Shown here: in pieces, positions 29,816-46,030 of the stretch
Numbering within the stretch: the first letter of the stretch is position 1
Layout of the letters: the number at the start of each line of letters is the position of its first letter
Source: Candidatus Pacebacteria bacterium UBA6180
Lineage (GTDB): Bacteria; Patescibacteriota; Microgenomatia; UBA1400; PJMF01
Direction of reading: 5' to 3'
Assembly (NCBI GenBank): GCA_002422165.1
Contig: DITQ01000010.1
Span: 56,595 to 120,594, forward strand
Length of the DNA stretch: 64,000 nt
Program-made: the position numbers and the translations under genes
Notes under the pieces: model-generated
Database searches by the model: none
Told to the model about the DNA's origin: nothing
The model's input: the letters and a program-made list of their open reading frames with translations, nothing else

Positions 29816-31018
29816 ATGCCAATTTTTAAATACGTAGTCAAAAATAAACAGGGAGAAACTGTTAGAGGTAAGGTGGAAGCATCTTCGCATGTCCAAGCAG
29901 TTTCTACTCTGATGGGTCGAGACTTGTTTGTGATCGACGTGGTTCCTTTGGGTCAGCAGGATGGATTTTTGACTGGACTCTTGCACAACAAAGTCAAATT
30001 TGAAGATTTGGTCAATTTTACTCGTCAATTAGCGACCATGATCAATGCTGGTTTGCCTTTGGCGACGTCGCTTTCGATTTTAGAGGAGCAAGGCAAATCG
30101 GAAATGGCCAAATTAACAGGCAATTTACTCAAGGATGTTGAAGGCGGACTCAGCTTTTCTGCTTCTTTGGATAAGTATAAGGATAGTTTTTCACGAATCT
30201 ACGTGCAGCTAGTGAAAGCTGGTGAGATAGGTGGTGTTTTGGACAACGTCTTGGATCGGTTGGCTGTGACCATGGAGAAAGAAAAAGATTTTCGTGCCAA
30301 AACTAGAGGAGCGATGGTTTATCCAGTTATCATTATCTTGGCGATGGTGGCGGTTGTGATTGTGATGATGGTAGCAGTTATTCCAAAATTGACGGAGATG
30401 TATCAGGATTTCGGGGCGGACCTGCCAATGGCAACTCAAGTGCTAATGAGTGTGTCTAATTTTTTTGTCAACTCTTGGTGGTTTTTGGCTTTGTTGACGG
30501 CTGGCTTGGTTTTTGCTTTGCGCTCTTTCAAGAAAACTCCTCGTGGTGAAAAAGCAATTGATGGTCTTTTTTTGCGTATGCCAATCATCGGAGTGCTTAA
30601 GCAAAAAATTGTTTTGACTGATTTCACTCGCACTCTCTCTCTTTTGCTAGGAGCAGGTGTTTCTCTTCTCGAGGCTTTAGACATCGTGGCTTCAGCAATT
30701 AGCAGCGCAGTTTACCGAGAACAGTTACAAGAGATTAATAAACAAGTTGAAAAGGGCGTTGCTCTTTCTGACGCCATTTCTAGTTATGAAAACTTCCCCC
30801 CCATCTTGCATCAGATGGTTGCTGTGGGTGAAGAAACGGGCAAGTTGGACGAAATTTTATCTAAAATTTCTGAATATTTCGAGAAAGAAAGTGAGTACGC
30901 TATCAAGAATTTAACTACTGCCATTGAGCCAATGATTATGATTTTACTTGGCATTGGGGTCGGATTTATCGTGATTGCGATCATTATGCCAATCTACAGC
31001 TTGACTAGTCAGTTTTAA
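29816..31018 (+). CDS. pilC: Type IV pilus platform protein PilC (GspF family)
   Basis: Two GspF repeats and three TM segments are present. Length is 400 aa. Confidence 0.88.
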   Translation: MPIFKYVVKNKQGETVRGKVEASSHVQAVSTLMGRDLFVIDVVPLGQQDGFLTGLLHNKVKFEDLVNFTRQLATMINAGLPLATSLSILEEQGKSEMAKLTGNLLKDVEGGLSFSASLDKYKDSFSRIYVQLVKAGEIGGVLDNVLDRLAVTMEKEKDFRAKTRGAMVYPVIIILAMVAVVIVMMVAVIPKLTEMYQDFGADLPMATQVLMSVSNFFVNSWWFLALLTAGLVFALRSFKKTPRGEKAIDGLFLRMPIIGVLKQKIVLTDFTRTLSLLLGAGVSLLEALDIVASAISSAVYREQLQEINKQVEKGVALSDAISSYENFPPILHQMVAVGEETGKLDEILSKISEYFEKESEYAIKNLTTAIEPMIMILLGIGVGFIVIAIIMPIYSLTSQF

Positions 31019-31034
31019 TTGCGCTAAACTATTT

Positions 31035-31682
31035 GTGAATAGGAATTCTATGCAAAAAATTAAATTTTTCCAAAAAATTAAAAATCAGGCTGCTTTCACC
31101 ATGATTGAGCTTTTGATCGTGATCGCGATTCTTGGTATTTTGGCAGTGGCTGTTTTGGCAGCTATCAATCCAATTGAACAGATCAACCGCGGTCGTGACA
31201 CTGGTTCTCGGTCTGATTCTGAGCAGTTGCTCAGTGCCATTGATCGCTTCTATGCTTACAAGGGTTACTACCCATGGTTGACTAATCCCAATGACACTTC
31301 AACTTTAGCCTGGCGCGGTGTGGCCGGAGATACAACAATCACTTTTAGTGATGGAGGCTCGATTTCAGCTTGGCCTGACAACACTTCTCCAGATCCTTGT
31401 TATGTTTTGGATAAGATTGCTAATGGAGATGGCAGCACTTGTGACGGCACCAACGAGGTTAAACGTAGCTTCGTCGATAAAATAACTAAATCTGATTACA
31501 ACCATCTCTATGTTTATTACAATGGTGACCCAGGGAGCAGTCTCTATGTCTGTTTCAAGCCACAGTCAGGAGCCATGAAGGAAGAAGCTTCGAGTCGCTG
31601 TAGTGCTGGATTGCCAGAAGATCTGCAGGGTGCAGTTAGCGAAATTTGTACTTCAGGCGCAGAATACATCTGTCTCCCATAA
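31035..31682 (+). CDS. Type IV pilin (prepilin N-methylation motif; candidate major pilin)
   Basis: A class III signal QAAF|TMIELLIVIAILGILA is present. Residue -1 is Ala rather than Gly. Length is 215 aa with a Cys pair near the C-terminus. Confidence 0.8.
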   Translation: MNRNSMQKIKFFQKIKNQAAFTMIELLIVIAILGILAVAVLAAINPIEQINRGRDTGSRSDSEQLLSAIDRFYAYKGYYPWLTNPNDTSTLAWRGVAGDTTITFSDGGSISAWPDNTSPDPCYVLDKIANGDGSTCDGTNEVKRSFVDKITKSDYNHLYVYYNGDPGSSLYVCFKPQSGAMKEEASSRCSAGLPEDLQGAVSEICTSGAEYICLP

Positions 31683-31688
31683 ATTCTG

Positions 31689-32489
31689 ATGCTATTTTTT
31701 GAATTAGCTTTGGTTTTTATTTGCTCCTACTTTTTGGCGATCCTAGCTAGCTTTTTTAATGTGGTTATTTTTCGTACAGCCAGAGAAGAGTCTTTTGTTG
31801 GGGGTCGTTCTAAATGTGAGCACTGTGGGAAGCAAATCAGTTGGCGAGACAATCTACCCATCTACTCTTTTATTATGCTTGCTGGTAGGTGTCGAAGCTG
31901 TCACAGTCAAATATCTAGGAGACATTTCATCAGCGAATTATTAGCTTTTGTTAGCGGCTGGTTTTTCTATTTTGGTTTATTGCATGCACAAGCTTTACAG
32001 GGTTTACCAATAGGGCAGCTGATTGTCTATTTTTTATGCTTTTTTGTGTTGGCTTTCATAGTTTGGGCAGATCTACAGTATTTTTTGGTTCCAGATTTTC
32101 TAGTAATTTTGCTGACAATTTTTACGGTGATTTTGCTCTTTTTGACTGAGAGTGCTTGGCAAACTGCGTTGTTAGCAGTAATTTTCTCTTGTGCTGTTTT
32201 TGCCATGATTTACTTGGTGGCGCGCAAATTTTTAGCCAAAGAAGCCCTGGGCTTAGGTGATTTGAAATTGATGGTCCCCTTGTCTTTGCTGCTTTCTTGG
32301 CCGCTAATTCTTGTCAATATTTTTTTAGCGTTCATTTTAGGTGGGATTTTTGCTATGATTGCTTTAGTTACAGGTCGTAAAAAATTTGGCCAAGCGTTGC
32401 CTTTTGCTCCTTTCCTTGTTTTGGCAGCGTTGATTAGCTTGTTTTATGGTAAGTTTTTGATCGACTGGTATTTAGGTTTTTTGTTATAA
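31689..32489 (+). CDS. pilD: Prepilin peptidase PilD (A24 family)
   Basis: The N-terminal zinc-binding CEHCGKQ...CRSC motif and polytopic membrane topology fit PilD. Confidence 0.8.
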   Translation: MLFFELALVFICSYFLAILASFFNVVIFRTAREESFVGGRSKCEHCGKQISWRDNLPIYSFIMLAGRCRSCHSQISRRHFISELLAFVSGWFFYFGLLHAQALQGLPIGQLIVYFLCFFVLAFIVWADLQYFLVPDFLVILLTIFTVILLFLTESAWQTALLAVIFSCAVFAMIYLVARKFLAKEALGLGDLKLMVPLSLLLSWPLILVNIFLAFILGGIFAMIALVTGRKKFGQALPFAPFLVLAALISLFYGKFLIDWYLGFLL

Positions 32490-32499
32490 AAATAAATTT

Positions 32500-33501
32500 A
32501 TGCGTATCATAAAGTTTTTTTTAGCAGCTCTCTTAGGCACGATTATTATTGGAGGATTGGTTATATTGGTTCTTCGCGAAGTAGTTTTGGTGGCGGGCGC
32601 ATCTTCCTTATCTGGAGACTATAAGAGCTTGCTAAATAAAAACTATAGCCAAGAGTGTATGCGCCAGCACGGTTATGTCCAAGATTATTTCACGCAAATT
32701 CGTTTCACTTCCAACAGAGAATATAAGACCGAGGTTGTCTGTGCTGATTTTACCTCCACGCCAATTGTTTTAGAAAGTAAAAAATTGCCGATATTGTTAT
32801 TCAAAACCTCAATTGGTTCTGGCTTTGTGATTGATGAGCGAAAGTTGCCTTCGACAATTAAATTGAGTTCTCTAGGTCGGAAGATTTTTGTCTATACAGA
32901 GAATGGTCAAATGCACAGCAACTACCTGCGACCAGCAGATTTAGATTATGAGCTGGGGCCAGTTAGTGTCTGTCAGGCCCACGATTACCAGTGTTGCGAT
33001 CTGGATGTTCAGAGTGGCGAAGGAGAACAACTAACCAGAGTTAACGATTGCCCAAAGAGTTGCTATACCAGCTGTTTGTTGAGGCCAGTAGTGTTGTCTT
33101 TCAATACTCGCCCCGCGCTTGATACAGAAACGCGCATTGTCGAAGTGCGCGCAAATGAATTGGTCACTTTTTCTTACGTAGTTGGTGATGGTAAAACTGA
33201 TGTTTTTGCTGGTCAAATTGCCAAAAATGAAGAGTTAAATTTACTAGAAAAAATGCAAGCTTTAATCGCAGGTCCCAAATCAAGTAAAGCTGGCGGTTTA
33301 TCTTTACCAGTTACAGTGACAATAGACTTTGGTGATGGAGAGATTTGGCAAAGCAATAAGTTACAAGACACCATTGATCATCAATACGCTTGTACTAGTC
33401 AAACTTGCGTTTTTCAGGTCAAATTAAGTGCAAGTGACAGCCGTGGAGTCTTGTCAGTTGGTAATGAATTGACTAGAATGATTATTAAGGTGGACAGGTA
33501 A
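32500..33501 (+). CDS. Cys-rich, membrane-anchored hypothetical protein inside the pilus operon
   Basis: An N-terminal TM helix is followed by about 12 Cys (VCQAHDYQCCDLDV, NDCPKSCYTSC). No homology I recognise. Confidence 0.45.
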   Translation: MRIIKFFLAALLGTIIIGGLVILVLREVVLVAGASSLSGDYKSLLNKNYSQECMRQHGYVQDYFTQIRFTSNREYKTEVVCADFTSTPIVLESKKLPILLFKTSIGSGFVIDERKLPSTIKLSSLGRKIFVYTENGQMHSNYLRPADLDYELGPVSVCQAHDYQCCDLDVQSGEGEQLTRVNDCPKSCYTSCLLRPVVLSFNTRPALDTETRIVEVRANELVTFSYVVGDGKTDVFAGQIAKNEELNLLEKMQALIAGPKSSKAGGLSLPVTVTIDFGDGEIWQSNKLQDTIDHQYACTSQTCVFQVKLSASDSRGVLSVGNELTRMIIKVDR

Positions 33502-33515
33502 CAGAATTCAAGATC

Positions 33516-33935
33516 ATGAAAAAAAACAAACAAAAAGGTTTTACTCTTCTAGAAATCCTTGTGGTTATTTCGATTATTGGCATTTTGGTGGCACTGGGAA
33601 CAGCGGCTTTTTCGACCACTCAGAAGAAAAGTCGCGATGCACGACGTAAATCTGACCTTAAGGCTGTCCAGAACGGTTTAGAACAATATCACGCCAAAGT
33701 TGGCTCCTACCCGACATCATCTGAAGAGGCAAATGACGAGACAATTTTCCCAGCTGGTCTGCCTGAAGACCCTAGAAATATTAGTCCAAATACCTACACA
33801 ATCAACTTTAATAGTGATTCTTTCTGCGTCTGTGCCCTTTTGGAAAATAGTGCGGGCAATGCTGCCAACCTGCCTTCTGGTTCTGCTTGTGAGTACGGCA
33901 GTGGCAACTATTATTGTCTGGGGAATCTGCAATGA
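33516..33935 (+). CDS. Minor pilin / pseudopilin
   Basis: KQKG|FTLLEILVVISIIGILVALG is a canonical prepilin cleavage/methylation motif. Confidence 0.8.
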   Translation: MKKNKQKGFTLLEILVVISIIGILVALGTAAFSTTQKKSRDARRKSDLKAVQNGLEQYHAKVGSYPTSSEEANDETIFPAGLPEDPRNISPNTYTINFNSDSFCVCALLENSAGNAANLPSGSACEYGSGNYYCLGNLQ

Positions 33936-34336
33936 ACAAAAAAAATCGTGGCTTCACGATGATTGAATTATTGGTGGTGGCGACGGTGATTATTTTATTA
34001 ACAGCGATAGGCTTAGTTTCCTTTAGTCAGACAGTGCGTAGTAGCCGCAATGCCAAGCGCAAAGCCGATTTGGAGACTGTTAGACAAGCCCTAGTGCTAT
34101 ACAAACAAGACCACACTTATTATTCTGACAATACTAGTTTGAACTTTGATAGCTTAGTTGGCGAACTACATGCGGCAGAATACCTAACAGAATCAACCAT
34201 AGTGGATCCTAAGAACACGATTCCTTACACCTATCAAGCGATTTGCTCGACAGTCAGTGGCCCGAATTGCATCAAGGTGACTTTGCGAGCGGTGCTAGAG
34301 CCAGATGAGCAAACCTATGACCTTATCGCTCTCTAA
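33932..34336 (+). CDS. Minor pilin / pseudopilin
   Basis: KNRG|FTMIELLVVATVIILL is a prepilin motif. ATGA overlaps the upstream stop. Confidence 0.8.
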   Translation: MNKKNRGFTMIELLVVATVIILLTAIGLVSFSQTVRSSRNAKRKADLETVRQALVLYKQDHTYYSDNTSLNFDSLVGELHAAEYLTESTIVDPKNTIPYTYQAICSTVSGPNCIKVTLRAVLEPDEQTYDLIAL

Positions 34337-34844
34337 GAGACAATCCAATGCAGCTTTCACTCTAATTGAGATGACAATCGCTGTTTCTGTGATGGTTATT
34401 TCCTTGTTAATTGGTTTAGCCAACTATTTACGTTTTCTAGACAAACAGCGTCTTTATCAGGCAGGGGCAAATGTAGAGATAATGCTTAAGGATGGTCGTT
34501 CCAAAGCGCAAAATGGATATTTAGGTAGTGAGGAGTTGGGTTATTGCACACAACTGGCGGGAGTAGAGATTAGTTCTGCGACCGATGTTAGCGGTCGAAT
34601 TTCAATTATTGGGCGCTTGAGTTGTGCTGACGATAGCTCTTTGATTTATGAAAGCTTCACTCTTGAGCAAGCGGAAGTTGCTATCGACCAGCACTTTCAG
34701 ATTATATTTTTACCTTCTCGGGGAGCTCGTTTGACCCTTGGTGGAGCTACGACCAGTAGTGGCGCTGCTGTGCTTAGTCAGCGTGATAGTGCAGTTATTT
34801 TTAATTTAGATCAGGGAGGAACGATTGATGTCAGTTATCAGTAG
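34305..34844 (+). CDS. Minor pilin / pseudopilin
   Basis: SNAA|FTLIEMTIAVSVMVISLL is a prepilin-like motif with Ala at -1. Confidence 0.65.
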   Translation: MSKPMTLSLSKRQSNAAFTLIEMTIAVSVMVISLLIGLANYLRFLDKQRLYQAGANVEIMLKDGRSKAQNGYLGSEELGYCTQLAGVEISSATDVSGRISIIGRLSCADDSSLIYESFTLEQAEVAIDQHFQIIFLPSRGARLTLGGATTSSGAAVLSQRDSAVIFNLDQGGTIDVSYQ

Positions 34845-35325
34845 AGCAGCTGTGGGAGAACCCATCGCTCACCGCGCGCAGCGCGGTTCTACTCTAGTAG
34901 AAATTTTAGTGGCGGTGACCATCATCTCTCTGGTGTTGACGGCGGTTTCAGCAATGATTTCCATGTCTGTTAAGCTAGCGGAAAGTAACGAAAAAAAACA
35001 ACTAGCATTGCAAAAAGCTGAAGAAGCAATGGAGTTTTTTCGCAAAGAACGAGTGATTTCTAGTTGGTATAGTTTTTCTACTCCTCTGACTGATGGGGCA
35101 ACTTATTGTGTAAGTAGTTTGCCAGAAGATGTTGCTAGTTTGTCAGCGAAGTTAGGTGGTTGTAGCAATAGCGACACGATGGAAGCTGCGCGATATAGCT
35201 TCCAGCGTCAGGCAGTTGTCAATTTTAACAGCGTCAATCGACTTAATATACAGATAGAGATGCTCTGGAATGATGGCTCTAAGGCAAAGAACTTAGTTTT
35301 AGAGCAGAGCTTTGAGAATTATTAG
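34825..35325 (+). CDS. Minor pilin / pseudopilin (PilV/FimT-like)
   Basis: AQRG|STLVEILVAVTIISLVL is a prepilin motif. Confidence 0.65.
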   Translation: MMSVISRAAVGEPIAHRAQRGSTLVEILVAVTIISLVLTAVSAMISMSVKLAESNEKKQLALQKAEEAMEFFRKERVISSWYSFSTPLTDGATYCVSSLPEDVASLSAKLGGCSNSDTMEAARYSFQRQAVVNFNSVNRLNIQIEMLWNDGSKAKNLVLEQSFENY

Positions 35326-35874
35326 TTAATTTCTTGTTACCACGCCACTACCAAAATCCAGACTACTCGTTCTTGGGTTGTTCTCTATTTCGTCAGAACC
35401 AACTTTTAAATTAAAGTTGACTTCAATGTATTTTTTTCCCTCTTCTGTCGGGTAACAAGTAAAGAGTAAGTTTTGAACATAATCTGTACTTAGACTGCTG
35501 CCTTCAGTCAAGTAATATTTGCCATTTGCAGATATAGAGGCGATGCGATCATCTTCTTCACGGATAATAGTTTCCAAATCATCGCTGCCGATAATAGATA
35601 TGTAGTCAAGTTGAGTTTCACTCTCGCAGGGTGAAGTGATTTCGTTTGCGTTGCGCAGCATGTCAATGATCTGACGAGTAGCGTTGCCACCGGACTCACG
35701 CAAGTTTTGACTGATACGGCTTTTGTATGCGGTGGCCAGGAAAGTGATAAAAAGGCTGCTGATGGCTAAAAGTAGCAAAGCTGTGACGCCAGTGGTGATA
35801 AGCAGCTCAAGTAAAGTAAAGGCGCGCTGAGAGATGGTGGAAAATAAAGTGGTTTTCGAAGCAGATCGAGACAT
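35326..35874 (-). CDS. Pseudopilin-like protein
   Basis: SQRA|FTLLELLITTGVTALLLLAISS is a prepilin-like motif with Ala at -1. It is the first gene of a divergent minus-strand block. Confidence 0.6.
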   Translation of the reverse strand: MSRSASKTTLFSTISQRAFTLLELLITTGVTALLLLAISSLFITFLATAYKSRISQNLRESGGNATRQIIDMLRNANEITSPCESETQLDYISIIGSDDLETIIREEDDRIASISANGKYYLTEGSSLSTDYVQNLLFTCYPTEEGKKYIEVNFNLKVGSDEIENNPRTSSLDFGSGVVTRN

Positions 35875-35935
35875 AGATAAATTCGTAGTTGATTTTTGCT
35901 ACATGCCCACTATTTTTTTGCAACTTTTTAATTGC

Positions 35936-37732
35936 CTACTGTGTGATTAACCGTGGATTGATTTCGCGCCAATTGCTAGTACTAGCCTTGAGTTTGACTG
36001 GCCAGTTGAATAGTAGATCGGAACGATAGATGAAATTTTCGATCGCTTGGTTGTTATTGAGAATGGGGCCAAGATTTCCATCATCAAATGTACGGTTGAG
36101 AGTGACGCCGCCCCAGCCAACGAAGGTGCCAGCCCCGATGAACTTGCGATCAGGAGGAACTTCGCCGATGTCGGTTTTGCTTTGCAGGATTAGGCTATCA
36201 TTGGCGATGAAAACACCTTCTAAATTGCTGTTCGCTATAGCAACCACAGGCACTGTAGGCGTATTAGGATCGAGCTCATAGCCGATATTTGGTGTAATCC
36301 AGATGTCACCGCTAGCGATGAAGGCCAGGAAGCCTCCGTTGGCAACGCTTGTGATTTTGCGATTAGTGTCTCCAGGATTGCTGTCATCGAAGGTCAAGCG
36401 GCCGTCGACAAAGACGACCAGCTGTTGGCCACTAGACAGAAAGAAACCTTGGCTTTCATCAATGCTGACATTGCCATTGATTTTGACATAGTTAACCTCA
36501 TCAGGTTGCCACCAGGGGGCAGAAGTAAAGTCACTGAGTAGAGGTTCCAGGTCTTCACCATTACCTATAGTGATAGCACTGTTTTCAGCTAGTCGGTAGA
36601 AATAGTCATAGGAAAGCGGTGCCAAATCAGTACGTAGAGCATAGGCATTACGGTTTTCAGGTCGAGATGTCAAATGAAGGTAAGAGTGATAGGCGCTACT
36701 GACGTTGCTGGTTTGAACGCGGCTTGGATCACTACTCGTGATAATCGTAAAGCCGCTGCTGAGAGGATTACTGCTGTTGCTGGGCAAGTTTAGGGCTGGT
36801 TGGCAGCCAGGATCGCCAGCACAAAAACTTTCGGGGATGGTGCTGGCGACTAAGTTGCTGGCAAAGAGATTGCCGCCGAAAACTTGAAACCAAGAAGTAT
36901 TGGAGAGACTGTATTCTCTTAGGTAAAAATTGACTCCTGCTAGTGGTGGATAAACGCCTGAGTAGCGACAGAGATAGGGGTCAGTGACACTGATTGGCGC
37001 AGGACAGGAACAAACGTAATTGGTTCCAACCTGATTGGTAAGATCTAGAGTAACGGTGTAACCAGTGCCCGTCATGACATTGGAGATGCTGTAGTTACTA
37101 GGATTAGCGAAGCTAAAGGTGGCATCCTGGGTGGTTTGGCTCGGGGCCGACGCACGCAGGGTAATGTTTGATAAGTTATTGATCGGGGAAGCGCTGGCCT
37201 GGGTGCAATAAGCGCCACTGAGGGCAGCAGAAAGGTCGGTTTGAATTGAGCCCTGTATGAGACTGACAGTTGGGGTAGGTGTAGGTGTAGGTGTGCCTGT
37301 CGGGGGAGGTGTGCCTGTCGGGGGAGGTGTGCTACCACCACTTCCATCATCTTGCGGAGGCTCACAGTTACAGAGGACGTCGGCTTCCTCGTATATGCAG
37401 TTGCCACCAACCTCCGAGCAGTCACTGCATCGAACTTCATTACAACAAACTCCAGAGACAGGGTAAAAATTATTTGGATCGCTTGGGTCAGTGCAAGCAC
37501 CGCTGTCAAAGCACTCATAAGTTGCACATTGAGCCGGAGCTGGAGGTGGATTACTTGGGCAATTCGCATCACTTGAATAATTTAAGGTATGGGAATAAAT
37601 AACCGTTTGGGTACCGCAGTAGCCGCTACATTCACCCCAGACGGTGTCGTTGCATGCTGCTAAAGCTTGATTATTTGTAGTTAATAAAATTAGAAATAAT
37701 ACGGTAGTAATTATGGTTGATTTTAATCGCAT
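35936..37732 (-). CDS. Large secreted protein: signal peptide, ~100-aa Cys-rich module, Pro/Thr linker, ~430-aa C-terminal domain (candidate pilus-associated adhesin)
   Basis: Signal peptide is MRLKSTIITTVLFLILLTTNNQALA. At least 16 Cys occur in the first 110 mature residues. The PPPTGTPPPTGTPTPTPTPT linker is encoded by tandem nucleotide repeats at 37257-37340. Confidence 0.6.
   Translation of the reverse strand: MRLKSTIITTVLFLILLTTNNQALAACNDTVWGECSGYCGTQTVIYSHTLNYSSDANCPSNPPPAPAQCATYECFDSGACTDPSDPNNFYPVSGVCCNEVRCSDCSEVGGNCIYEEADVLCNCEPPQDDGSGGSTPPPTGTPPPTGTPTPTPTPTVSLIQGSIQTDLSAALSGAYCTQASASPINNLSNITLRASAPSQTTQDATFSFANPSNYSISNVMTGTGYTVTLDLTNQVGTNYVCSCPAPISVTDPYLCRYSGVYPPLAGVNFYLREYSLSNTSWFQVFGGNLFASNLVASTIPESFCAGDPGCQPALNLPSNSSNPLSSGFTIITSSDPSRVQTSNVSSAYHSYLHLTSRPENRNAYALRTDLAPLSYDYFYRLAENSAITIGNGEDLEPLLSDFTSAPWWQPDEVNYVKINGNVSIDESQGFFLSSGQQLVVFVDGRLTFDDSNPGDTNRKITSVANGGFLAFIASGDIWITPNIGYELDPNTPTVPVVAIANSNLEGVFIANDSLILQSKTDIGEVPPDRKFIGAGTFVGWGGVTLNRTFDDGNLGPILNNNQAIENFIYRSDLLFNWPVKLKASTSNWREINPRLITQ
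37257..37340. repeat. Coding tandem repeats (6-bp ggtgta x3 and 21-bp cctgtcgggggaggtgtg-containing unit x2) encoding the PT linker
   Basis: gtaggtgtaggtgtaggtgtgcctgtcgggggaggtgtgcctgtcgggggaggtgtgct is visible directly in the sequence. Confidence 0.8.
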
Positions 37733-38307
37733 AGATCAGTAACAATAATTTTCTTCACATAGTTGGTTCTAGCTTGATCAAAATCTTCAGTGAGCTGGAC
37801 TAAGAGAAAATTTAGTTGATTGCTTTTTTCGACGAAGTCAGTGAAACTAATGATTTTTTCTCCAGGAACAAACAAGGTTGCTCCATCCTTGACTGGAATT
37901 CGCAGGTTCTTCAGAGAATAACTTTTGCCAGTGTTGAGATCGGTATATGTTTCTGGCACACAGTAAACGCTTTGGCTAGGAGATAACTTTAGATCAACAG
38001 GTTCAAACAAACTACTCTGGGTAAAAGCGATAGCAGCCCTAATATTTAAGGTTTGTGAAGTCTCATCGTAGAAGTTGAAATAACCCTTCATTAAGGAATG
38101 GTTATTTAAGCCATCAGTGTTGTTAGATTTGATAACTTTAGAGGGGTTGATGCCTTTAGAATCAAGCGCAGTTTTTTCCCACTGACCAGTGAATTGGTTA
38201 TAGAAATCGCCTTCTATTTTATTACTTTGCTTGTTTTGGTAAAGGTAGTAATAAATGGCAAAAAAAGCCAAGGAAACGAGTAGTAAAACCAACCATGTTT
38301 TTTTCAC
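37723..38307 (-). CDS. N-terminally anchored hypothetical protein
   Basis: An N-terminal TM helix is MKKTWLVLLLVSLAFFAIYYYL. Length is 194 aa, with an 8-nt overlap with the upstream gene. Confidence 0.45.
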   Translation of the reverse strand: MKKTWLVLLLVSLAFFAIYYYLYQNKQSNKIEGDFYNQFTGQWEKTALDSKGINPSKVIKSNNTDGLNNHSLMKGYFNFYDETSQTLNIRAAIAFTQSSLFEPVDLKLSPSQSVYCVPETYTDLNTGKSYSLKNLRIPVKDGATLFVPGEKIISFTDFVEKSNQLNFLLVQLTEDFDQARTNYVKKIIVTDLCD

Positions 38308-38351
38308 CTACTTAGTTTAGCACGATAGCGAAAGTTAAAGCAATTATATGA

Positions 38352-39974
38352 TTAGTTACCGGCTTCTAATACTAGCACTTTTGCTTCTAAAAGGGGTAAT
38401 TTATTGTTAACTTGGTTTCCAGTAATGACATTGTGAGTTTGACTTGATGGAGCTAGCCCCTCATAGTCAGTGGTTGGTTCTTTTCCGTCTGATTTGGGGT
38501 AGGATTGAGCAAATTCTGCTTTTTGATCCACTTCGTACATTACGTAGTACAATCTATTTATTTTGAGTGCTTTATAAAAATCGCTGATTTCCCTGATTTT
38601 TCCAAGGTTGGCAGCTTTGAAGTTGTCTCCATACAGATTAGGGGCTCCAGTTATCAATACTGTTGTAACTGAAAAGGGATCGCTTTCATTGATTACAAAT
38701 CCCATCAAGGTGCCAGCTACGCCAAAACCAGGAATATTTATTTCTCCAATCTCTTTTCCCAAAAAGAAAGTTGGAACCATGTTAACTTGTTTTCCGTATG
38801 CTTTATGTAAATATTCAGGATTAGTCAAGCCTTGAAGATTTGGGTCTGTTACCCACTGAGGATCAACTTTCTCTCCGGCCGGCCAAGGGAAATTGTCAAA
38901 ATTACCGAACATAATATTTTGCGAGCCTTCAATTCTAATCCACGATCCTTTATAGAAAACATGGGTGTACCCCTCGTTATCAACTACTCTTGGAAGAGTA
39001 TTGTCGATGGTTCGTTGTTCGGCGGAAGTGCCGTCGCTGACCGGCTTAAAATCTAGGGTAACAGGGTCGATATAAAATTTGTCACCATTTCTATCTGTAA
39101 AAATAATTGGGTTAGAACCTCTTCTCGCGTCCTTTTCTTTGTCCAGGGCAATGCTAAAGGTCTTGCGTTGTTCAAAGCTAAGAGAGCTGACATCAACGCT
39201 GCCTCCCTCCATAGCTTCATCTACCAATTTTTGGATTATTTCTGCTTCGCTTAGCACAACCACTTCAACTGTTGGAGAGGGTGGCTGAGTGGGAGCCTCC
39301 GCGGTCACAATCGGATCTTCCTGTGGTGGTGGCGGAGTCAAGCTGGGGTCAACTTCTCCTGGGAAGTTAGGAGCGCTTGCTTGGTTGGGATCAACATCAG
39401 CTTTGGGGGCAGAAAGTCCGCAGGCTAATTGCATCGCACCCAGAATTACAATTAAAGTTAAGCCTGCGTAAACGCCTTTAGGCATTGCGTAGAGTACTCT
39501 GTCAAATAATTCGGCAAAAGATGTAAATGGTTTTTTAAGTTCTTCCAGTAAATAACGTCGCATCAGAGCAGCTAATTCTGCCTCATTTTTTGGTGTGGAT
39601 TTTGATTCAACGGCAATGTTTTTGGCTTGTCGTTTGAGTTCTGCTACACGACTTCTAATTTGTTGCCAATTAGCTTGTAATGCTGCAGCAACTTCTATTG
39701 GCAAGTTCTTCTCGCTGATATCGAGAATTTGTTCATTTAATAAATAATTAAGTTGAAGAGCACGGGCGGTATCAATGGTTTGTTCTAAACCTTTTAGCTG
39801 TCTTTTCTTGGTTTTTCTAGCAAAAGCTTTTTTTCCAGACTCAAGAACTGAAGCTACTGTGGCCTGCTGAGGACTAAAGGGTTCGTGTTTATCTCTGTCG
39901 CCGCGAAGTTGTGAGCGAAAATTAATTTCTGCTCGCCTTTTCGAATCACTATTATGTAGTTCTTTTCTCCCCAT
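38352..39974 (-). CDS. Bitopic membrane protein with Pro-rich spacer and large extracytoplasmic domain (hypothetical)
   Basis: A ~190-aa cytoplasmic coiled-coil-like N-terminus is followed by a TM helix GLTLIVILGAMQLAC. A PPPPQEDPIVTAEAPTQPPSPT linker and a ~300-aa domain follow. Confidence 0.5.
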   Translation of the reverse strand: MGRKELHNSDSKRRAEINFRSQLRGDRDKHEPFSPQQATVASVLESGKKAFARKTKKRQLKGLEQTIDTARALQLNYLLNEQILDISEKNLPIEVAAALQANWQQIRSRVAELKRQAKNIAVESKSTPKNEAELAALMRRYLLEELKKPFTSFAELFDRVLYAMPKGVYAGLTLIVILGAMQLACGLSAPKADVDPNQASAPNFPGEVDPSLTPPPPQEDPIVTAEAPTQPPSPTVEVVVLSEAEIIQKLVDEAMEGGSVDVSSLSFEQRKTFSIALDKEKDARRGSNPIIFTDRNGDKFYIDPVTLDFKPVSDGTSAEQRTIDNTLPRVVDNEGYTHVFYKGSWIRIEGSQNIMFGNFDNFPWPAGEKVDPQWVTDPNLQGLTNPEYLHKAYGKQVNMVPTFFLGKEIGEINIPGFGVAGTLMGFVINESDPFSVTTVLITGAPNLYGDNFKAANLGKIREISDFYKALKINRLYYVMYEVDQKAEFAQSYPKSDGKEPTTDYEGLAPSSQTHNVITGNQVNNKLPLLEAKVLVLEAGN

Positions 39975-40083
39975 TTTTCCTCACTTTCACTTCTTCTTCA
40001 CGAAGAAACAAAATTGATATTTTTTGACTGCGGTTTGCTGCAACACCTGAGTGAACAGTTAAAGTTTGATTCTACCTTATGTC

Positions 40084-41184
40084 CTATAACTTTGTCAAAT
40101 CCTCTACTAGCTCTTTAATTTTTTCCTTCCCCACCTGTTGCATCACCAGGACGTGGGCGAACTCATCGGAGATAGCCAGTTGCCATTTTTCGCAAATTTG
40201 CTTTGGTGGTTTCTGGAAATAGACAATGTTGGAGTACGGATTGAGCCAACTTGGCCAGGCGATGTCCTGGAGGCGCTGATGTAGGTACTTGGCGTTGGCT
40301 AGGCAGGCGCGGGCTTCTCGAGCGAAGCCCTGCCTGCCCCTAGTCTGAATAGCGTACCAGAGGAATAAAGGGGTGTGGCCGTTGCGACAGCCAGCGATGG
40401 TGGTGTCCAGCGAGCCGATGTAGTCGACGGCGTTGCCGACGCGCTCCACCAGCGATTTTCGCGCCAGGACGATCCCCACAGGCATGTGGGTACCGATAAA
40501 TTTGTGGCCAGAAATAGCTAGACTGCCGATGCTCTGACGAAAATCTGCCTGAGGGGCGCCGCTTAGGAAGGGCAAAGTCATACCGAAGAGGGCGGCGTCG
40601 CAGTGTAGGTGGAAGCGCTTGATGCCTTGTCGCTTGAGGACTGCTTCAGCCAAGTCGATTCGGTCAATTGCTCCGCGCATGGTGGTGCCAAGGTTGAGAT
40701 TGAGGAGGACGGGTAAGTGGCGGCGAGCGGCAATTTGCTGTTCTAGATCAGTGTAGTCGATCTCGCCGTGGGCTTGGGACTTAACCATCACGGTAGGGAT
40801 GCGCAGCAGGCGAGCAATTTTCTGAATCGAATAATGAGTGTCAGCGGAGAAGTACAGGACGCCTTCTGGGTAGAGTTGGCGGCCGACAAAAATTCCGTAA
40901 GTGTTGCCCTCAGTGCCGCCTGAAGTCAAGTAACCCCAGAAGTCTTCCTTGGGCATTCGGTAAAGCCGGCCAAAAAAGCGTAACGCCTCCTGCTCAAACT
41001 TTTCAGAATTGATCCGCCAACTAGAGGGAACAAAAGGATCACCAAGATTTATGAGAGCATAATCGAGAAAATCATAGAGGGGACGAAAATTAGCACTGGT
41101 GTTGATTGGATAGCCGAGCATGGAAGCAGTTTTGGCATCCATGTCTTTTTTGAACGAAGTAAGCCGCTGGTTGACTTTATCCAT
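40084..41184 (-). CDS. hdc: PLP-dependent (group II) histidine-decarboxylase homolog
   Basis: WGYLTSGGTEGN, YFSADTHYSI, GEIDYTDL and the PLP-lysine motif SGHKFIG align closely with bacterial PLP-dependent HdcA (WGYVTNGGTEGN ... SGHKMIG). Length is 366 aa. Confidence 0.65.
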   Translation of the reverse strand: MDKVNQRLTSFKKDMDAKTASMLGYPINTSANFRPLYDFLDYALINLGDPFVPSSWRINSEKFEQEALRFFGRLYRMPKEDFWGYLTSGGTEGNTYGIFVGRQLYPEGVLYFSADTHYSIQKIARLLRIPTVMVKSQAHGEIDYTDLEQQIAARRHLPVLLNLNLGTTMRGAIDRIDLAEAVLKRQGIKRFHLHCDAALFGMTLPFLSGAPQADFRQSIGSLAISGHKFIGTHMPVGIVLARKSLVERVGNAVDYIGSLDTTIAGCRNGHTPLFLWYAIQTRGRQGFAREARACLANAKYLHQRLQDIAWPSWLNPYSNIVYFQKPPKQICEKWQLAISDEFAHVLVMQQVGKEKIKELVEDLTKL

Positions 41185-41297
41185 GTATCATCTATGTTTC
41201 TATCACAAATGATCTCAACTTATCAATCTTGCGCTTCCTTTCCCAAGCAGGTATAATCAAACTCTTCTAAAGTCAAATCTAAAGAAAAAGGACACCT

Positions 41298-41453
41298 ATG
41301 GGAGCATTACCCAAGAACAAAATTACTCGAGTCGAGCAAGGTAAGCGTCGCGCGGGCAATAAAGCCCAAGTCAAAAAAGACCCTAAAGTCACCGCTATCC
41401 CTCTACACAAGCAGGGTTTCGTGGCTAGCATGCGCAAAAGCCTGGGTTTATAG
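41298..41453 (+). CDS. rpmF: Small basic protein, possibly 50S ribosomal protein L32
   Basis: The 51-aa manual translation is MGALPKNKITRVEQGKRRAGNKAQVKKDPKVTAIPLHKQGFVASMRKSLGL. The N-terminus resembles L32 (MAVPKRKTSKSRR...). An RBS-like aaaggaca sits upstream. It is below the ORF-track length cutoff. Confidence 0.4.
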   Translation: MGALPKNKITRVEQGKRRAGNKAQVKKDPKVTAIPLHKQGFVASMRKSLGL

Positions 41454-41502: not shown

Positions 41503-41964
41503 ATGTATTTTCTTGATGATGACGATCGAATCAAGGGTGAAGGGCGTCACCAGCGTCGTGCTTTCTTGATGCAGTTGCTTTTTGCTCACACTTTTGATGA
41601 AGTTGGAGATCAAGCTCTTAGTGAACTAGATGAGCAAGCTTTGCCAGAGGCAGAGAGTCAGCTTCTAGAGCAAATTTTGGCTGCTGCTCCAGACATTGAC
41701 ACTTTGATCGCTGCGCACGCGCCAGAACGCCCACTCTCAGAGATCAATCGGGTAGATTTATCGATTATGCGCTTGATTATTTTCGAGAGTCAGACCGAGA
41801 AAACCCCCAAGAAAGTTTTGGTCGACGAAGCCGTCGAGTTAGCTAAGGAATTTGGTAGTGATACTTCTGCCAAATTCGTCAATGGAGTTTTGGGCAAAAT
41901 TTTATTTACAGAGCTTGACCAGGCTGAGGTTAGCTCTTCAGACGAGAAAGAAAACCAATTATGA
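41503..41964 (+). CDS. nusB: Transcription antitermination factor NusB
   Basis: The C-terminal VDLSIMRLIIFE...KVLVDEAVELAKEFGSDTSAKFVNGVLGKI matches the NusB core. Confidence 0.7.
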   Translation: MYFLDDDDRIKGEGRHQRRAFLMQLLFAHTFDEVGDQALSELDEQALPEAESQLLEQILAAAPDIDTLIAAHAPERPLSEINRVDLSIMRLIIFESQTEKTPKKVLVDEAVELAKEFGSDTSAKFVNGVLGKILFTELDQAEVSSSDEKENQL

Positions 41965-42242
41965 GTTTCGCCAAAATTGACCCAGAAGTTTTTAATCGCC
42001 TTCGCCAAGTGTTGGTTGAGTTGACAGGTAATGACATCGAGGAAGTGGTGCCTGATTCTGATCTGGAAGAAGACCTTGGTCTCAATCTCGATATCGACAT
42101 GGCTAGAATCGTGTCCCGTCTTAACCAAGAATTTGACATCAATTTGCAAGAAAAATTAGTTTATCAAGAACTAACTGAGGAAACTGGTGCTAGTGTGGCA
42201 GAGTTAGCCAAATTAGTTTATGATGAATATGAATTAGGCTGA
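41961..42242 (+). CDS. Acyl-carrier-protein-like small acidic protein lacking the phosphopantetheine-attachment serine
   Basis: EEDLGLNLDIDMARIVSRLNQEF aligns with the ACP sequence [21 protein letters not shown], but the Asp-Ser-Leu serine is replaced. Its position immediately upstream of rnc matches the acpP-rnc arrangement. Confidence 0.45.
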   Translation: MSFAKIDPEVFNRLRQVLVELTGNDIEEVVPDSDLEEDLGLNLDIDMARIVSRLNQEFDINLQEKLVYQELTEETGASVAELAKLVYDEYELG

Positions 42243-43365: not shown

Positions 43366-43623
43366 TTGCTTGTAAATCAAAATAACACTATGAAAAGCTT
43401 ACTTGAATTCATCTTACTTCGCATGGTCGAACACCCAGAAGATCTAAAGATTGATGAGGTTCAAGAAATGGGTCTGACTATTTACAAACTTAAGCTTCAT
43501 CCTGATGATGTTGGTCGCGTGATTGGTCGCTCTGGCAACGCCATTAAAGCTATTCGCAAACTCGCCAGTGTGCGTGCGGTAAAAGAACGCTTGCGCGTGA
43601 GAGTGGTTTTGCAGGAAGACTAA
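43366..43623 (+). CDS. KH-domain RNA-binding protein (YlqC/UPF0109 family)
   Basis: The VGRVIGRSGNAIKAIR GXXG KH motif is present. Synteny after rpsP is conserved. An alternative start exists at 43390. Confidence 0.75.
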   Translation: MLVNQNNTMKSLLEFILLRMVEHPEDLKIDEVQEMGLTIYKLKLHPDDVGRVIGRSGNAIKAIRKLASVRAVKERLRVRVVLQED

Positions 43624-44465
43624 AGCTCTTCTTCAGTTTCATTTATTCTACTCAGTTCATCAGCTGGTTCTACAGATGCATTTAGGCTTTGTTCTAACTC
43701 TTCAACGCTCAGGTTTCCAATTCCAAATAAATTGCCGCGGTCACCGCGGATAACCTGGTCTTGAAGCTGCAGATCTCCCGGGATTAGTTGGTTGATGTTA
43801 TCGAGAATTTTGCGCTCTGCCAAGGTAATGTCAGGTAAGGGATTGGTGATAGTGGTGCGAATGGATTGGGTGAAATAAAAACTGCGCAAGACCAGATCAG
43901 CCTGAGCAATAGCGTTGCGATCTTGCTCAATATTGCGATTAATTGAGATGCTGGTAATAGTGCTGATTGGAGTAACTTGTTCTATTAGACTCATAAACTC
44001 CTGAATGCGCCAAAGTGGACCACTGACGCTAAAATCTAAATCGAGAAAATCATAGCTTGTAGTGTTGCTGCTGCGGCGTACTTGAGTGGAATCAGTGGCA
44101 ATTTCACCAGGATTGAGGCTGAAGTTTTTGATCACCACCTCTGTGGTGTTGGCAACTTTGTTAAGATTATTGAGAATTTCTAAAAGTGGTTTGTGAGAAG
44201 GCAAAACTTTATTGATATCAGAAGCCTGGTTGAAATTGGGGTCGATGGCTAGCTGTTTGAGTTGTTCTGCCTTATTATAAAATTTGGCTAGCTCTAGTTC
44301 ACGCTCATTAAGTTTATTTAAGTCAGTCAAAATTGGAGTAATTTGTTGGATCACGCCAATTAATAAAACTAGTCCAGCGAGGATGAAAAAAAGTACTCCT
44401 AAGACTAATTCCTTACGAGTGTTCCAAAATAAGCGCCAGTTTACTTCGGTTTTATTTTCAATCAT
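43620..44465 (-). CDS. PilO-like type IV pilus assembly protein (bitopic)
   Basis: An N-terminal TM helix and a coiled-coil precede the periplasmic domain. It sits downstream of pilM and pilN on the same strand with overlapping ends. Confidence 0.45.
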   Translation of the reverse strand: MIENKTEVNWRLFWNTRKELVLGVLFFILAGLVLLIGVIQQITPILTDLNKLNERELELAKFYNKAEQLKQLAIDPNFNQASDINKVLPSHKPLLEILNNLNKVANTTEVVIKNFSLNPGEIATDSTQVRRSSNTTSYDFLDLDFSVSGPLWRIQEFMSLIEQVTPISTITSISINRNIEQDRNAIAQADLVLRSFYFTQSIRTTITNPLPDITLAERKILDNINQLIPGDLQLQDQVIRGDRGNLFGIGNLSVEELEQSLNASVEPADELSRINETEEEL

Positions 44466-45018
44466 TTTTTTTGAGTTCTAATTTGAGAGTCAGTTTATAG
44501 CTACCATTGTCTGCTCTAGACAAAGTATTTTTTTCGATGTCATGATATTGCCCTCGTAATTTTTCGCTATCTAGAATTTGGTTGACTTCTCTGAATTTGA
44601 AGATATTTTCGCTGCTTAATTGCAACACCAACCCACCCTGCTCTTCCTGGTAGCTCATGCCGACAATTTCAGCTTTTTCAGCAAAAGTTTCAGAGAAGTA
44701 GTTCATTGCAGCCTGCTTATCACTACGTTTTTGATAAATTTCACTGATGGCTCGAATTTTATTGACAAAAATTAAATAATTAAGCTCGACATTTTCTTGG
44801 GCGAGAATGCTTGCTCGATATTCCTTGATTTTGTTTTCGGTAGTATTAATGCGCAAATTATTAAACAATTTAAAACCAAAAACCCCAATCATGAGTAGGC
44901 AAGCTACTCCCAATACATAGCTGCTTAAGCGAAAAATGCGAACATCTTGCTCTTTTTGCTTGCTTTTTTGTTTAACACGGTTGGCTAAAAAATTGATGTT
45001 GATCATGAGTTTTGCCAT
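44458..45018 (-). CDS. pilN: PilN-like type IV pilus assembly protein
   Basis: The N-terminal ININFLANR resembles the PilN INLLP motif. A single TM helix is present. Length is 186 aa. Confidence 0.55.
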   Translation of the reverse strand: MAKLMININFLANRVKQKSKQKEQDVRIFRLSSYVLGVACLLMIGVFGFKLFNNLRINTTENKIKEYRASILAQENVELNYLIFVNKIRAISEIYQKRSDKQAAMNYFSETFAEKAEIVGMSYQEEQGGLVLQLSSENIFKFREVNQILDSEKLRGQYHDIEKNTLSRADNGSYKLTLKLELKKND

Positions 45019-45022
45019 TAAG

Positions 45023-46030
45023 CTAGAGCTGTCTAGTGATTAGGCCCATGCAAACGCTATAGCTAGCTTGATTGAGTTCTGGAACTTGGCCTTTGGCTTT
45101 GGCGAAAGGAGCTGCTATCAACACTTCCACTCCCAAATTTTGACTGATTTTTTCGACCAAACCCTTTAGTTGAGCTGGCCCACCAGCTAAAGCAATGCGC
45201 TTAATTTTTTGTTCAGGGTGATTTTGGTTAAAAAAGCGCATCGTTTTTTGCAAATCAATGATTAGGTTGTTAATAATTGGGTCAATGACTTGGTATAGCT
45301 TGCCTTCCATTTGATTGGGATCGAGACCATAGTTAATTTTGTATTCTTCTGCCTGTTTAAGGTCGAGATTGAAACTTTGGCTAATAGCAGCGTCAATTAG
45401 TGAGCTGCCAGTTTTAGAATTAAAAACGAACTCGAACATATTATTGGCAACCACAGCGATGTCGTTGCTACTGGAGCCCATTTGGACAATGATGGTCTCA
45501 GGATCATTGGCTTCTATATCTAGCGAGCGAATGACAGAAAAAATTTGGGTTTCAAGAAGGGTTGCTTCGATGCCAATGTTGAGAAAAACATTATTGATTT
45601 TTTCAACCAGGGATTTACGCGATCCAACTAGCAAAACTTTCATTGTTGCATTAACTGCTTTTTTATTGGGTTTTTCTAGAACTTGATACTGCAAGATAAG
45701 GTCATTTTTGGGGATGGGGATGGACTGTTCAGCTTGCCAGCCAATCGCTGAAGCCAGCTCAGCATCACTAAGGACAGGCACATCAATCACTTTACTAGTG
45801 ACTAGATATTCAGGCAAACTAAGTCTGACGTCGCTTTGATCGAGCTTGTAGTCGTGGAAAAGGTTGCTAATTAGCTCAGCGAACTGCAGTGCTTCTTGGT
45901 CGCTTTTGGGAGCGACTAATCCTAATTTATTTTTGATTTCTACAGCTTTATTAATCGCTTGACTTCTGCTGTCTTTAGCAACAACGATCTTAATCGTGTG
46001 GGTGCCGATGTCTAGGGCAGTTATTGACAT
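45023..46030 (-). CDS. pilM: Type IV pilus assembly protein PilM (actin-like ATPase fold)
   Basis: The N-terminal ITALDIGTHTIKIVV matches the PilM/FtsA-like phosphate-1 motif. Length is 335 aa. Confidence 0.7.
   Translation of the reverse strand: MSITALDIGTHTIKIVVAKDSRSQAINKAVEIKNKLGLVAPKSDQEALQFAELISNLFHDYKLDQSDVRLSLPEYLVTSKVIDVPVLSDAELASAIGWQAEQSIPIPKNDLILQYQVLEKPNKKAVNATMKVLLVGSRKSLVEKINNVFLNIGIEATLLETQIFSVIRSLDIEANDPETIIVQMGSSSNDIAVVANNMFEFVFNSKTGSSLIDAAISQSFNLDLKQAEEYKINYGLDPNQMEGKLYQVIDPIINNLIIDLQKTMRFFNQNHPEQKIKRIALAGGPAQLKGLVEKISQNLGVEVLIAAPFAKAKGQVPELNQASYSVCMGLITRQL

Follow-up and report, generated by a model that had tools for sequence, protein, structure and literature searches.

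Among the decarboxylases dependent on pyridoxal phosphate (PLP), the plant enzymes AtSerDC and CsAlaDC act specifically on serine and on alanine, respectively, and mutagenesis has shown that this specificity is set by the last residue of a short Y-P-X motif, Tyr111 in the former and Phe106 in the latter (PMC11407765). A second determinant is Cys174 of CsSDC, corresponding to Gly168 of CsAlaDC, and the pairs Met321/Thr315 and Ala358/Ser352 of the same two proteins likewise affect activity (PMC13522723); activity of CsAlaDC on alanine needs both Phe106 and Gly168. Exchange of Tyr111 of AtSerDC for isoleucine (Y111I) leaves less than 5 % of the activity on serine, with a marginal gain on alanine (PMC11407765). 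Here, we analyze a homologue of these enzymes, encoded by a single gene within a stretch of 64,000 nucleotides (the window) from contig DITQ01000010.1 of Candidatus Pacebacteria bacterium UBA6180. We think it likely that the protein is a competent group II decarboxylase distinct from the histidine decarboxylases (HDCs), that it belongs to a clade, found mainly in the candidate phyla radiation (CPR), with a remodelled pocket, acting on a small neutral substrate, and that its gene is an inserted accessory one; on sequence grounds, the function is established only as far as the conversion of an L-amino acid to an amine plus CO2.

The translated open reading frame (ORF) matches Pfam PF00282 with 70.1 bits (cut-off 27, E=1.9e-19) and NCBIfam NF002748 (PRK02769) with 448.4 bits (cut-off 305, E=1.6e-134), the latter over positions 6-368 of a profile of 382. 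Its best matches in PDB (E=4e-101) are 8JG7 and 8JIJ, the structures of AtSerDC and CsAlaDC (341 bits), followed by 7ERV, the Photobacterium HDC (282 bits). Catalytic roles, taken from PMC11407765, were mapped through HMMER alignments to AtSerDC and CsAlaDC, and the residues listed in Table 1 are all present, including the tyrosine of the catalytic loop, on whose counterparts in the two plant enzymes activity depends (PMC11407765). Conservation is nearly complete among 252 full-length members of the family: lysine is found in 250, histidine in 251, aspartate in 251 and tyrosine in 236. The AlphaFold monomer (predicted template-modelling score, pTM, 0.77; mean predicted local distance difference test, pLDDT, 75.5) shows, by Foldseek, the three-domain architecture of fold type I, with template-modelling (TM) scores of 0.79-0.80 to 8JG7, 8JIJ and 7ERV; the structural ranking, 8JG7/8JIJ before 7ERV, 7CIF and MfnA, is the same as that by sequence score. 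Intact catalytic residues, their conservation throughout the family and the superposition of the model together identify the protein as a predicted intact group II PLP-dependent alpha-decarboxylase.

The position of the protein within its family was defined by a neighbour-joining tree of the same 252 members, drawn from 120 close homologues, 150 family-wide representatives selected by exhaustive search, and reference enzymes. It falls in a clade comprising P0001-P0017, 17 proteins with identities of 60 % or more, which we call YPIN after its pocket motif: in 100 bootstrap replicates this clade is recovered 100 times, the HDC clade 100 times and the plant/eukaryote serine decarboxylase (SDC) clade 91 times, while a grouping of YPIN with the HDCs is never found. 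The motifs YPIN, LGDPF, HCDAALFG, SGHKFIG and GCRN are invariant in the 17 proteins; mean column identity is 67 % and about 120 positions, the signature residues discussed below included, do not vary, indicating that the clade is under purifying selection. Named members come from Candidatus Roizmanbacteria and from a "Patescibacteria group bacterium". A scan of 185,579 GTDB species representatives with two invariant peptides of the clade returned only four members, 64-67 % identical, two from Roizmanbacteria, one from Patescibacteria and one from a metagenome-assembled genome (MAG) labelled Gammaproteobacteria; more distant matches carry other residues at X of the YPX motif. ENA ERZ27315062 and Logan SRR5323109, which are datasets independent of each other, both contain a protein identical to that of the window. 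The YPIN clade thus appears as a distinct branch, found mainly in MAGs labelled as CPR and behaving, within CPR, as a sporadic accessory gene. In the literature, no paper on HDC-like enzymes of Patescibacteria, or on bacterial serine decarboxylases of the HDC/SDC-like family, was found. Some relatives have further domains: C-terminal fusions to ACT, an amino-acid-binding regulatory domain, are seen in P0071, P0079, P0090 and P0033, especially in the clade with YPC[RT], and multi-domain or tandem relatives of 600-1000 residues (P0121-P0124 and P0140) also occur.

Residue X of the YPX motif is hypervariable throughout the family (C 52, I 34, Y 33, V 17, L 16, E 16, A 14, F 13 and others among the 252 members) and yet invariant within clades, being glutamate in all reference HDCs and isoleucine in the 17 YPIN proteins, a pattern that a residue determining specificity should show. 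In the Streptomyces L-methionine decarboxylase (MetDC) the motif reads G-Y-Q64-A65, where Gln64, the residue replaced in 7CIG, the deposited structure of the Q64A mutant, adjoins X, so that three characterised enzymes, AtSerDC, CsAlaDC and MetDC, recognise their substrates at this motif. At the four sites affecting the choice between serine and alanine, the protein of the window carries Ile27, Gly89, Met234 and Thr271, a combination found in no characterised enzyme.

A search of the 252-member alignment for positions invariant in the 17 proteins, and shared by at most 10 % of the others, selected seven residues: Ile27, Thr29, Ile45, Glu61, His233, Pro252 and Cys266. Elsewhere, position 45 is asparagine in 91 % of the sequences, 61 is arginine, lysine or histidine (phenylalanine in the HDCs), 233 is proline in 93 % and 266 is serine in 96 %. 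Position 266, counted over the whole alignment, is serine in 225 members and cysteine in 19, of which 17 are those of the YPIN clade. The serine aligned with Cys266 in the plant enzymes (AtSerDC Ser352*, CsAlaDC Ser347*) reaches over from the partner subunit to form a hydrogen bond with the phosphate of PLP (PMC11407765). Position 266 may also be that of Ser354 in human HDC. An S354G change in the human enzyme switches its substrate preference, a result cited in PMC13522723. At least five of the seven positions lie in segments which build the active site. The NLGDPF loop (Table 1) presumably adds to the pocket of the neighbouring subunit, as we assume by analogy with structures of DOPA decarboxylase. 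A preserved catalytic core, combined with signature positions concentrated in active-site segments, points to a clade retaining the chemistry of the family within a predicted, remodelled substrate pocket.

This pocket looks non-polar, because of Ile27, Phe51 and Met234, and the substrate is therefore probably an L-amino acid with a small neutral side chain, either aliphatic or hydroxylated (alanine, serine, threonine or valine-like), rather than histidine. That the enzyme is a bacterial serine decarboxylase, producing ethanolamine as a functional counterpart of the plant SDCs, we regard as unlikely, although AtSerDC and CsAlaDC are its best matches among solved structures (341 bits), it shares with them the motifs NLGDPF, HCDxALFG and SGHKF, and Met234 coincides with CsSDC Met321, the mutation of which abolishes SDC activity (PMC13522723). 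The remaining determinants disagree: tyrosine is missing from the YPX motif, where isoleucine in AtSerDC almost suppresses activity; Gly89 occupies the site of CsSDC Cys174, whose change to glycine (C174G) removes most SDC activity, and Thr271 that of CsSDC Ala358, where A358S abolishes it (PMC13522723). Moreover, the protein stops at residue 366, without the C-terminal zinc finger of the plant enzymes, and better candidates for bacterial SDCs are found in the clades reading YPYN, from cyanobacteria, Chloroflexi and Legionella.

A basic or unusual substrate, such as ornithine, lysine, diaminobutyrate (DABA) or a non-proteinogenic amino acid, accommodated through Glu61, His233 and Cys266, seems to us rather improbable. 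The reversal of charge at position 61 and the new histidine five residues past the PLP lysine would fit such a substrate, as would distant matches to DABA decarboxylase models and the class-III aminotransferase, of the ornithine/acetylornithine type, which adjoins the orthologue at two loci (L003 and L014). However, matches to families of the DABA or ornithine type are far under their cut-offs, confidence of the structural model is low where residues 61 and 233 sit, and Ile27 and Phe51 favour a non-polar pocket.

Homologues of the protein are named histidine decarboxylase by NCBI and JGI, and the sequence-only reading had likewise taken it for a PLP-dependent HDC. The homology itself was correctly recognized, as PF00282 and NF002748 confirm, and the four motifs quoted in its favour are all in the translation: WGYLTSGGTEGN at residues 83-94, YFSADTHYSI at 111-120, GEIDYTDL at 140-147 and SGHKFIG at 225-231, the last one containing the PLP lysine, K228, which proper alignment to AtSerDC Lys314 finds intact. 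That the enzyme makes histamine we nevertheless consider quite improbable. The score over the equivalog cut-off of NF002748 carries little information on the substrate: reference HDCs score 625 (AngH of pJM1) and 606 (the Klebsiella plasmid HDC), and the crystallised cores of AtSerDC and CsAlaDC, with 464 and 458, are proven serine and alanine enzymes ranking above the 448 of the window protein. NF002748 thus marks a subfamily, not a substrate, and its "histidine decarboxylase equivalog" cannot tell enzymes acting on histidine from those acting on serine or alanine.

As reference HDCs, obtained from annotated plasmids and from PDB, we used AngH of Vibrio anguillarum, BasG of Acinetobacter, the Klebsiella plasmid HDC and the Photobacterium phosphoreum HDC (7ERU/7ERV). 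Two further members of the HDC clade have YPES, CGDW, HADAALSG and SGHKMIG in common with these four. In full, the four references carry GYPES, NNCGDW, HADAALSG and SGHKMIG, where the window protein, and largely also the plant enzymes, read GYPIN, NLGDPF, HCDAALFG and SGHKFIG. Full-length identity to proven HDCs is 38-41 %, and Thr271 and Gly89 do agree with the HDC state, but the HDC clade, recovered with full bootstrap support, leaves the protein out, and none of the replicates joins the two. No histidine/histamine antiporter, HisRS paralogue or siderophore gene is found in the window or at five other loci of the clade; angH, by contrast, lies among the anguibactin genes. The protein does not, on these comparisons, appear to be a canonical HDC, and its label as a histamine maker is not supported. 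The sequence-only reading had itself allowed for a different amino acid, and this is the direction in which the evidence goes. It had also named two observations which would count against histidine, loss of the PLP lysine and affinity to glutamate, tyrosine or aspartate decarboxylases: the lysine is kept, and the competing clade turned out to be that of the serine and alanine decarboxylases, within the same subfamily.

These results bear on a widespread annotation: hundreds of bacterial proteins, including all those of Patescibacteria met in this analysis, are called histidine decarboxylase by a model unable to discriminate, and claims of histamine production from metagenomes, when resting on the NF002748 name, are unsafe. 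The YPX motif varies clade by clade, yet only four specificities, for histidine, serine, alanine and methionine, have been characterised; the YPIN clade, which also replaces three residues conserved at 91-96 % elsewhere (Asn45, Pro233 and Ser266), is a good target in the search for a new one. The practical value of the analysis lies in correcting the annotation and in providing a well-defined target for substrate discovery.

The gene appears to have been inserted, alone, into an otherwise rigidly ordered region. Syntenic loci, fetched by using RecG as an anchor, were available from four relatives, L054 (Woesebacteria), L056, L057 and L059, which share with the window a single gene order: PheST, Wzy-like, penicillin-binding protein, Trp/Tyr-RS, RecG, a 265-residue ORF, PilM, PilN-like, PilO-like, KH, S16, RNase III, a protein resembling acyl carrier proteins (ACP-like), NusB, a 51-residue bL32-like gene, and after it an ORF of 517-559 residues, one of about 195, one of about 600 and a pilin-like gene. 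Identities in the flanks are 68 % for NusB, 84-90 % for the bL32-like protein, 38-49 % for orf194 and 54-56 % for orf598. None of the four relatives has the decarboxylase between the bL32-like gene and the ORF of about 540 residues, and tblastn detected no remnant of it there. The intergenic region of L054 and L056 aligns with the spacer upstream of the decarboxylase as far as ...GCAAGATT (window 41225), and the alignment restarts at GATTTGACAAAGTTATAGG... (from window 40101; 16 of 19 positions identical to L056), a stretch covering the last five or six codons of the decarboxylase, its stop codon and the -35 box of a promoter (Table 1). A TATAAT is present on the plus strand within 41249-41263.

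The decarboxylase has a GC content of 0.525 (0.613 at third codon positions, GC3), compared with 0.447 over the remainder of the window; only one of the 55 genes has a higher value. Such an excess is no general feature of the family, since the GC of orthologues is at or below the local value in L003, L011, L014 and L015, and about equal to it in L012. Empty sites in four syntenic relatives, together with this anomaly, most likely reflect a lineage-specific insertion of a single gene between two divergent promoters, an event which the compared sequences make likelier than loss in the relatives, and the gene was probably acquired laterally. We searched for a target-site duplication, and rejected it: only 4 bp, GATT, are in common between the junctions, and were taken as microhomology. 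Nor do transposase, integrase or other mobile-element genes, or long repeats, flank the decarboxylase. The short common sequence looks like the product of illegitimate or microhomology-mediated recombination rather than transposition. With one metabolic gene inserted between two promoters, in a region of a reduced genome that is otherwise rigidly syntenic, the locus makes a clear example, and illustrates how accessory metabolism is gained in CPR.

That the gene is a decaying or non-functional passenger of a random insertion seems highly improbable: its insertion as a single gene with foreign GC, the lack of an obvious Shine-Dalgarno sequence, with only a weak promoter candidate upstream, and the contribution of host intergenic DNA to the last residues and the stop codon would fit this explanation, but the reading frame is full-length with all catalytic residues intact, the clade is under the purifying selection described above, the same protein recurs in two independent datasets, and the tail following the C-terminal "DL" is naturally variable in the clade.

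Some further observations concern the surroundings of the junctions. The contig of the closest relative, L058 (Logan SRR33394503; RecG 72 % identical), breaks off at position 10591, right where the bL32-like gene lies; strains differing at the junction may be the cause, or this may be a coincidence. The ORF resembling ribosomal protein bL32 (MGALPKNKITRVEQGKRRAGNK..., 51 residues, 41298-41453, plus strand) lies upstream of nusB and is 84-90 % identical in L054 and L056; its small size keeps it off the default ORF list. A 15-nt element, AGGTA[T/G]AATCAAACT, made up of a -10 box and downstream bases, is shared by 41249-41263 (plus strand) and 40063-40077 (minus strand): it was found as a 93 % inverted repeat, I4, and one copy faces the bL32-like/nusB genes, the other the 540-residue ORF. 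No terminator was found downstream of the decarboxylase. Between nusB and rnc, at 41961-42242 (plus strand), a 93-residue ACP-like protein, with a phosphopantetheine attachment site, keeps its position in all syntenic relatives, and is notable in a lineage expected to be without fatty-acid synthesis.

Table 1. Location of the decarboxylase gene, its functional residues and the flanks of the putative insertion
Feature	Position	Strand	Remarks
Decarboxylase ORF	40084..41184	-	ATG start, 366 aa; PF00282, NF002748, PDB and Foldseek matches
Lys228			AtSerDC Lys314 / CsAlaDC Lys309; PLP Schiff base
His227			AtSerDC His313; PLP phosphate binding
His117			AtSerDC His201; ring stacking
Asp196			AtSerDC Asp282; salt bridge to N1
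Ala198			AtSerDC Ala284; packs on ring
Tyr255, catalytic-loop proton donor	40420..40422	-	AtSerDC Tyr341 / CsAlaDC Tyr336
S225-G-H-K228-F-I-G-T-H233, PLP-lysine motif	40486..40512	-	Clade-specific His233 in place of a 93 %-conserved Pro
Y25-P26-I27, pocket YPX motif	41104..41112	-	X = Ile; AtSerDC Tyr111 / CsAlaDC Phe106
N46-L-G-D-P-F51 loop (NLGDPF)	41032..41049	-	Pro50 in 232 of 252 members; Trp in HDC clade (CGDW)
Cys266	40387..40389	-	AtSerDC Ser352* / CsAlaDC Ser347*; clade-specific
Putative inserted segment, ~1.13 kb	40098..41224	-	40-nt leader and coding sequence to about codon 362; GATT at both ends
Conserved intergenic block, 73 nt, left flank of insertion	41225..41297	.	Promoter region of the divergent bL32-like/nusB genes
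Sigma-70-type promoter, TTGACA-18-TAGAAT	40069..40098	-	11/12 consensus; faces the 540-aa ORF; -35 in decarboxylase codons 363-364

The gene had been described as standing alone next to a pilus block, in a streamlined genome, and this picture holds. RecG of the window is 64 % identical to a protein of Candidatus Woesebacteria and about 45 % to those of Pacebacteria and other Patescibacteria; these nearest named relatives fit the premise of a streamlined genome, and RecG comparison places the window in a CPR lineage of the Microgenomates type. The window contains no pyruvoyl HDC, and a hydropathy scan with Pfam search of its multi-pass proteins found no exchanger of amino acids or amines, of the APC type or other. 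The multi-pass proteins identified are Lgt, Vut_1, EamA, a Wzy_C-like protein, PilC and a prepilin peptidase; two more, both much smaller than APC transporters, are a 255-residue protein (15530-16297) with a weak match to DUF5656 under the cut-off, and a 253-residue protein (59876-60637, plus strand), which is predicted to cross the membrane six times and has no match in Pfam. Of all genes in the window, the latter is the richest in GC (0.576) and may be another foreign gene. Pilus genes lie on both sides: the interval 43620-46030 holds PilM/N/O-like genes, and 29816-35874 those for pilins, prepilin peptidase and PilC. Between the two type IV pilus sets, four genes at 35326-39974 (minus strand) encode proteins of 540, 194, 598 (Cys-rich/Thr-Pro-rich) and 182 residues, the last one pilin-like with an N_methyl motif; besides this motif the block has no Pfam domain, and it is syntenic in Woesebacteria-like relatives, where the 540-residue protein, evidently in very rapid evolution, gives 27 % identity or no match and its neighbours are 38-56 % identical. 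It may encode pilus-associated surface proteins.

Gene neighbourhood differs at every locus of the clade examined, and an all-versus-all BLAST of the ORFs of 10 loci revealed no partner gene shared across the clade. In L003, the orthologue is the last of a series of genes on one strand, where it is preceded by a class-III aminotransferase, another gene, an enolase, an M20 deacylase of the ArgE/DapE type and a second enolase; the aminotransferase is atypical, and the enolases are of the N-succinyl-amino-acid racemase/o-succinylbenzoate synthase (NSAR/OSBS) type (TIGR01928, 216 and 287 bits). L014 keeps the aminotransferase (50 % identical to that of L003) and an enolase (78 %), in another arrangement. 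Such a set of genes resembles the routes made up of N-succinyl-amino-acid racemase and desuccinylase, whose substrates are mostly neutral or hydrophobic, so that this context gives a hint, by analogy and not more than a hint, at a hydrophobic or neutral substrate. The two regions (L003 3694-11134 and L014 3161-8254), in which the aminotransferase is atypically long, may in themselves represent a CPR operon for the salvage of N-acyl or D-amino acids. The contexts of other homologues with isoleucine in the pocket (Vibrio campbellii, a Saccharibacteria MAG, L011 and L012) were considered as a further clue and discarded, being heterogeneous and uninformative. The Vibrio campbellii gene (L009 4974-7294) is a paralogue, with YPIS and LGDPF, distinct from the classical Vibrio HDC; a homocysteine S-methyltransferase is encoded after it, in the same orientation, which hints at a link to the metabolism of methionine or S-methylmethionine.

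According to the chemistry of the family, the enzyme would work as a homodimer, a member of the HDC/SDC-like subfamily of group II alpha-decarboxylases which act on L-amino acids with the help of PLP, and in which Lys228 would carry PLP as an internal aldimine, with His117 stacked on the pyridine ring and Asp196 salt-bridged to N1. The substrate would form the external aldimine, CO2 would then depart, and Tyr255, from the mobile loop of the partner subunit, would protonate C-alpha, with release of a primary amine. Since neither a transporter nor a pathway partner accompanies the gene, the amine is probably an end-product of catabolism or salvage, rather than an element of a module for acid resistance coupled to an antiporter.

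Several points weigh against this reading as a whole. The class of substrate was derived from pocket residues and from analogy with plant enzymes only about 40 % identical, and the determinants are mixed, Met234 being SDC-like, Gly89 like that of AlaDC and HDC, and Thr271 HDC-like; the charge reversal at Glu61, from arginine, lysine or histidine, could instead indicate a basic substrate. Cys266, in place of the serine which binds the phosphate, makes reduced or altered PLP binding possible, and the pLDDT of the model falls under 50 at residues 19-60 and 252-269, which are pocket segments. The NSAR/deacylase context is found at only two of six loci of the clade, and none of its genes is in the window. 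As to the insertion, the comparison with deletion is unrooted, the contig of L058, the closest relative, goes no further than this site, and the relatives with an empty site are fairly distant (RecG 64-65 % identical, GC 0.35-0.38).

A more far-reaching proposal, which we hold only tentatively and rate as possible but doubtful, is that the YPIN/GCRN clade represents a new substrate specificity, moving as a single gene between Patescibacteria and turning a scavenged amino acid into an amine, either as a proton-consuming step for energy or pH or to supply a compound with an effect on the host cell. If this were true, the amino acid used by these auxotrophic episymbionts could come from the salvage of N-acyl or D-amino acids through the racemase and deacylase seen in L003 and L014. 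Acid tolerance and host-directed amine production are both speculation, for nothing in the gene context supports either.

Compared with known enzymes, the protein is clearly outside the archaeal MfnA tyrosine/aspartate decarboxylases (TIGR03812; 3F9T and 6JY1), with which it shares the group II fold and a similar size, scoring 123 bits against a cut-off of 299 at about 20 % identity. To the Gram-negative HDCs (7ERU/7ERV, AngH, BasG and the Klebsiella enzyme) it is linked by subfamily (NF002748), by length (about 370-386 residues for the group), by the same catalytic residues, by 38-41 % identity and by Thr271 and Gly89, but it differs from them in lacking YPES, CGDW, HADAALSG and SGHKMIG, in its NF002748 score (448 versus 606-625) and in having no siderophore or antiporter context.

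The nearest enzymes, in both sequence and fold, are AtSerDC (8JG7) and CsAlaDC (8JIJ/8JIK), with 341 bits, 40-41 % identity and a TM score of 0.80. PLP-binding and catalytic residues, NLGDPF, HCDxALFG and SGHKF are alike, Gly89 agrees with AlaDC and Met234 with SDC. In contrast, X of the YPX motif is isoleucine rather than tyrosine or phenylalanine, cysteine replaces the phosphate-binding serine at position 266, and the window protein carries Ile45, Glu61, His233 and Pro252; the N-terminal extension is missing, as is the distinctive C-terminal zinc finger of the plant SerDC and AlaDC (the end of the protein, residue 366, aligns to about residue 386 of chains of 418-421), and the plant/eukaryote enzymes form a separate clade (bootstrap 91). 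The L-methionine decarboxylase of Streptomyces sp. 590 (7CIF) is more remote, being about 24 % identical and 557 residues long; it contains large insertions, reads GYQA where the window protein has GYPI, and retains serine at the position of Cys266. It has, however, the same fold, the motif NNLGDPF and its recognition residue, Q64, on the same G-Y-x-X motif, and provides a precedent for an enzyme with a hydrophobic substrate in this branch of the superfamily.

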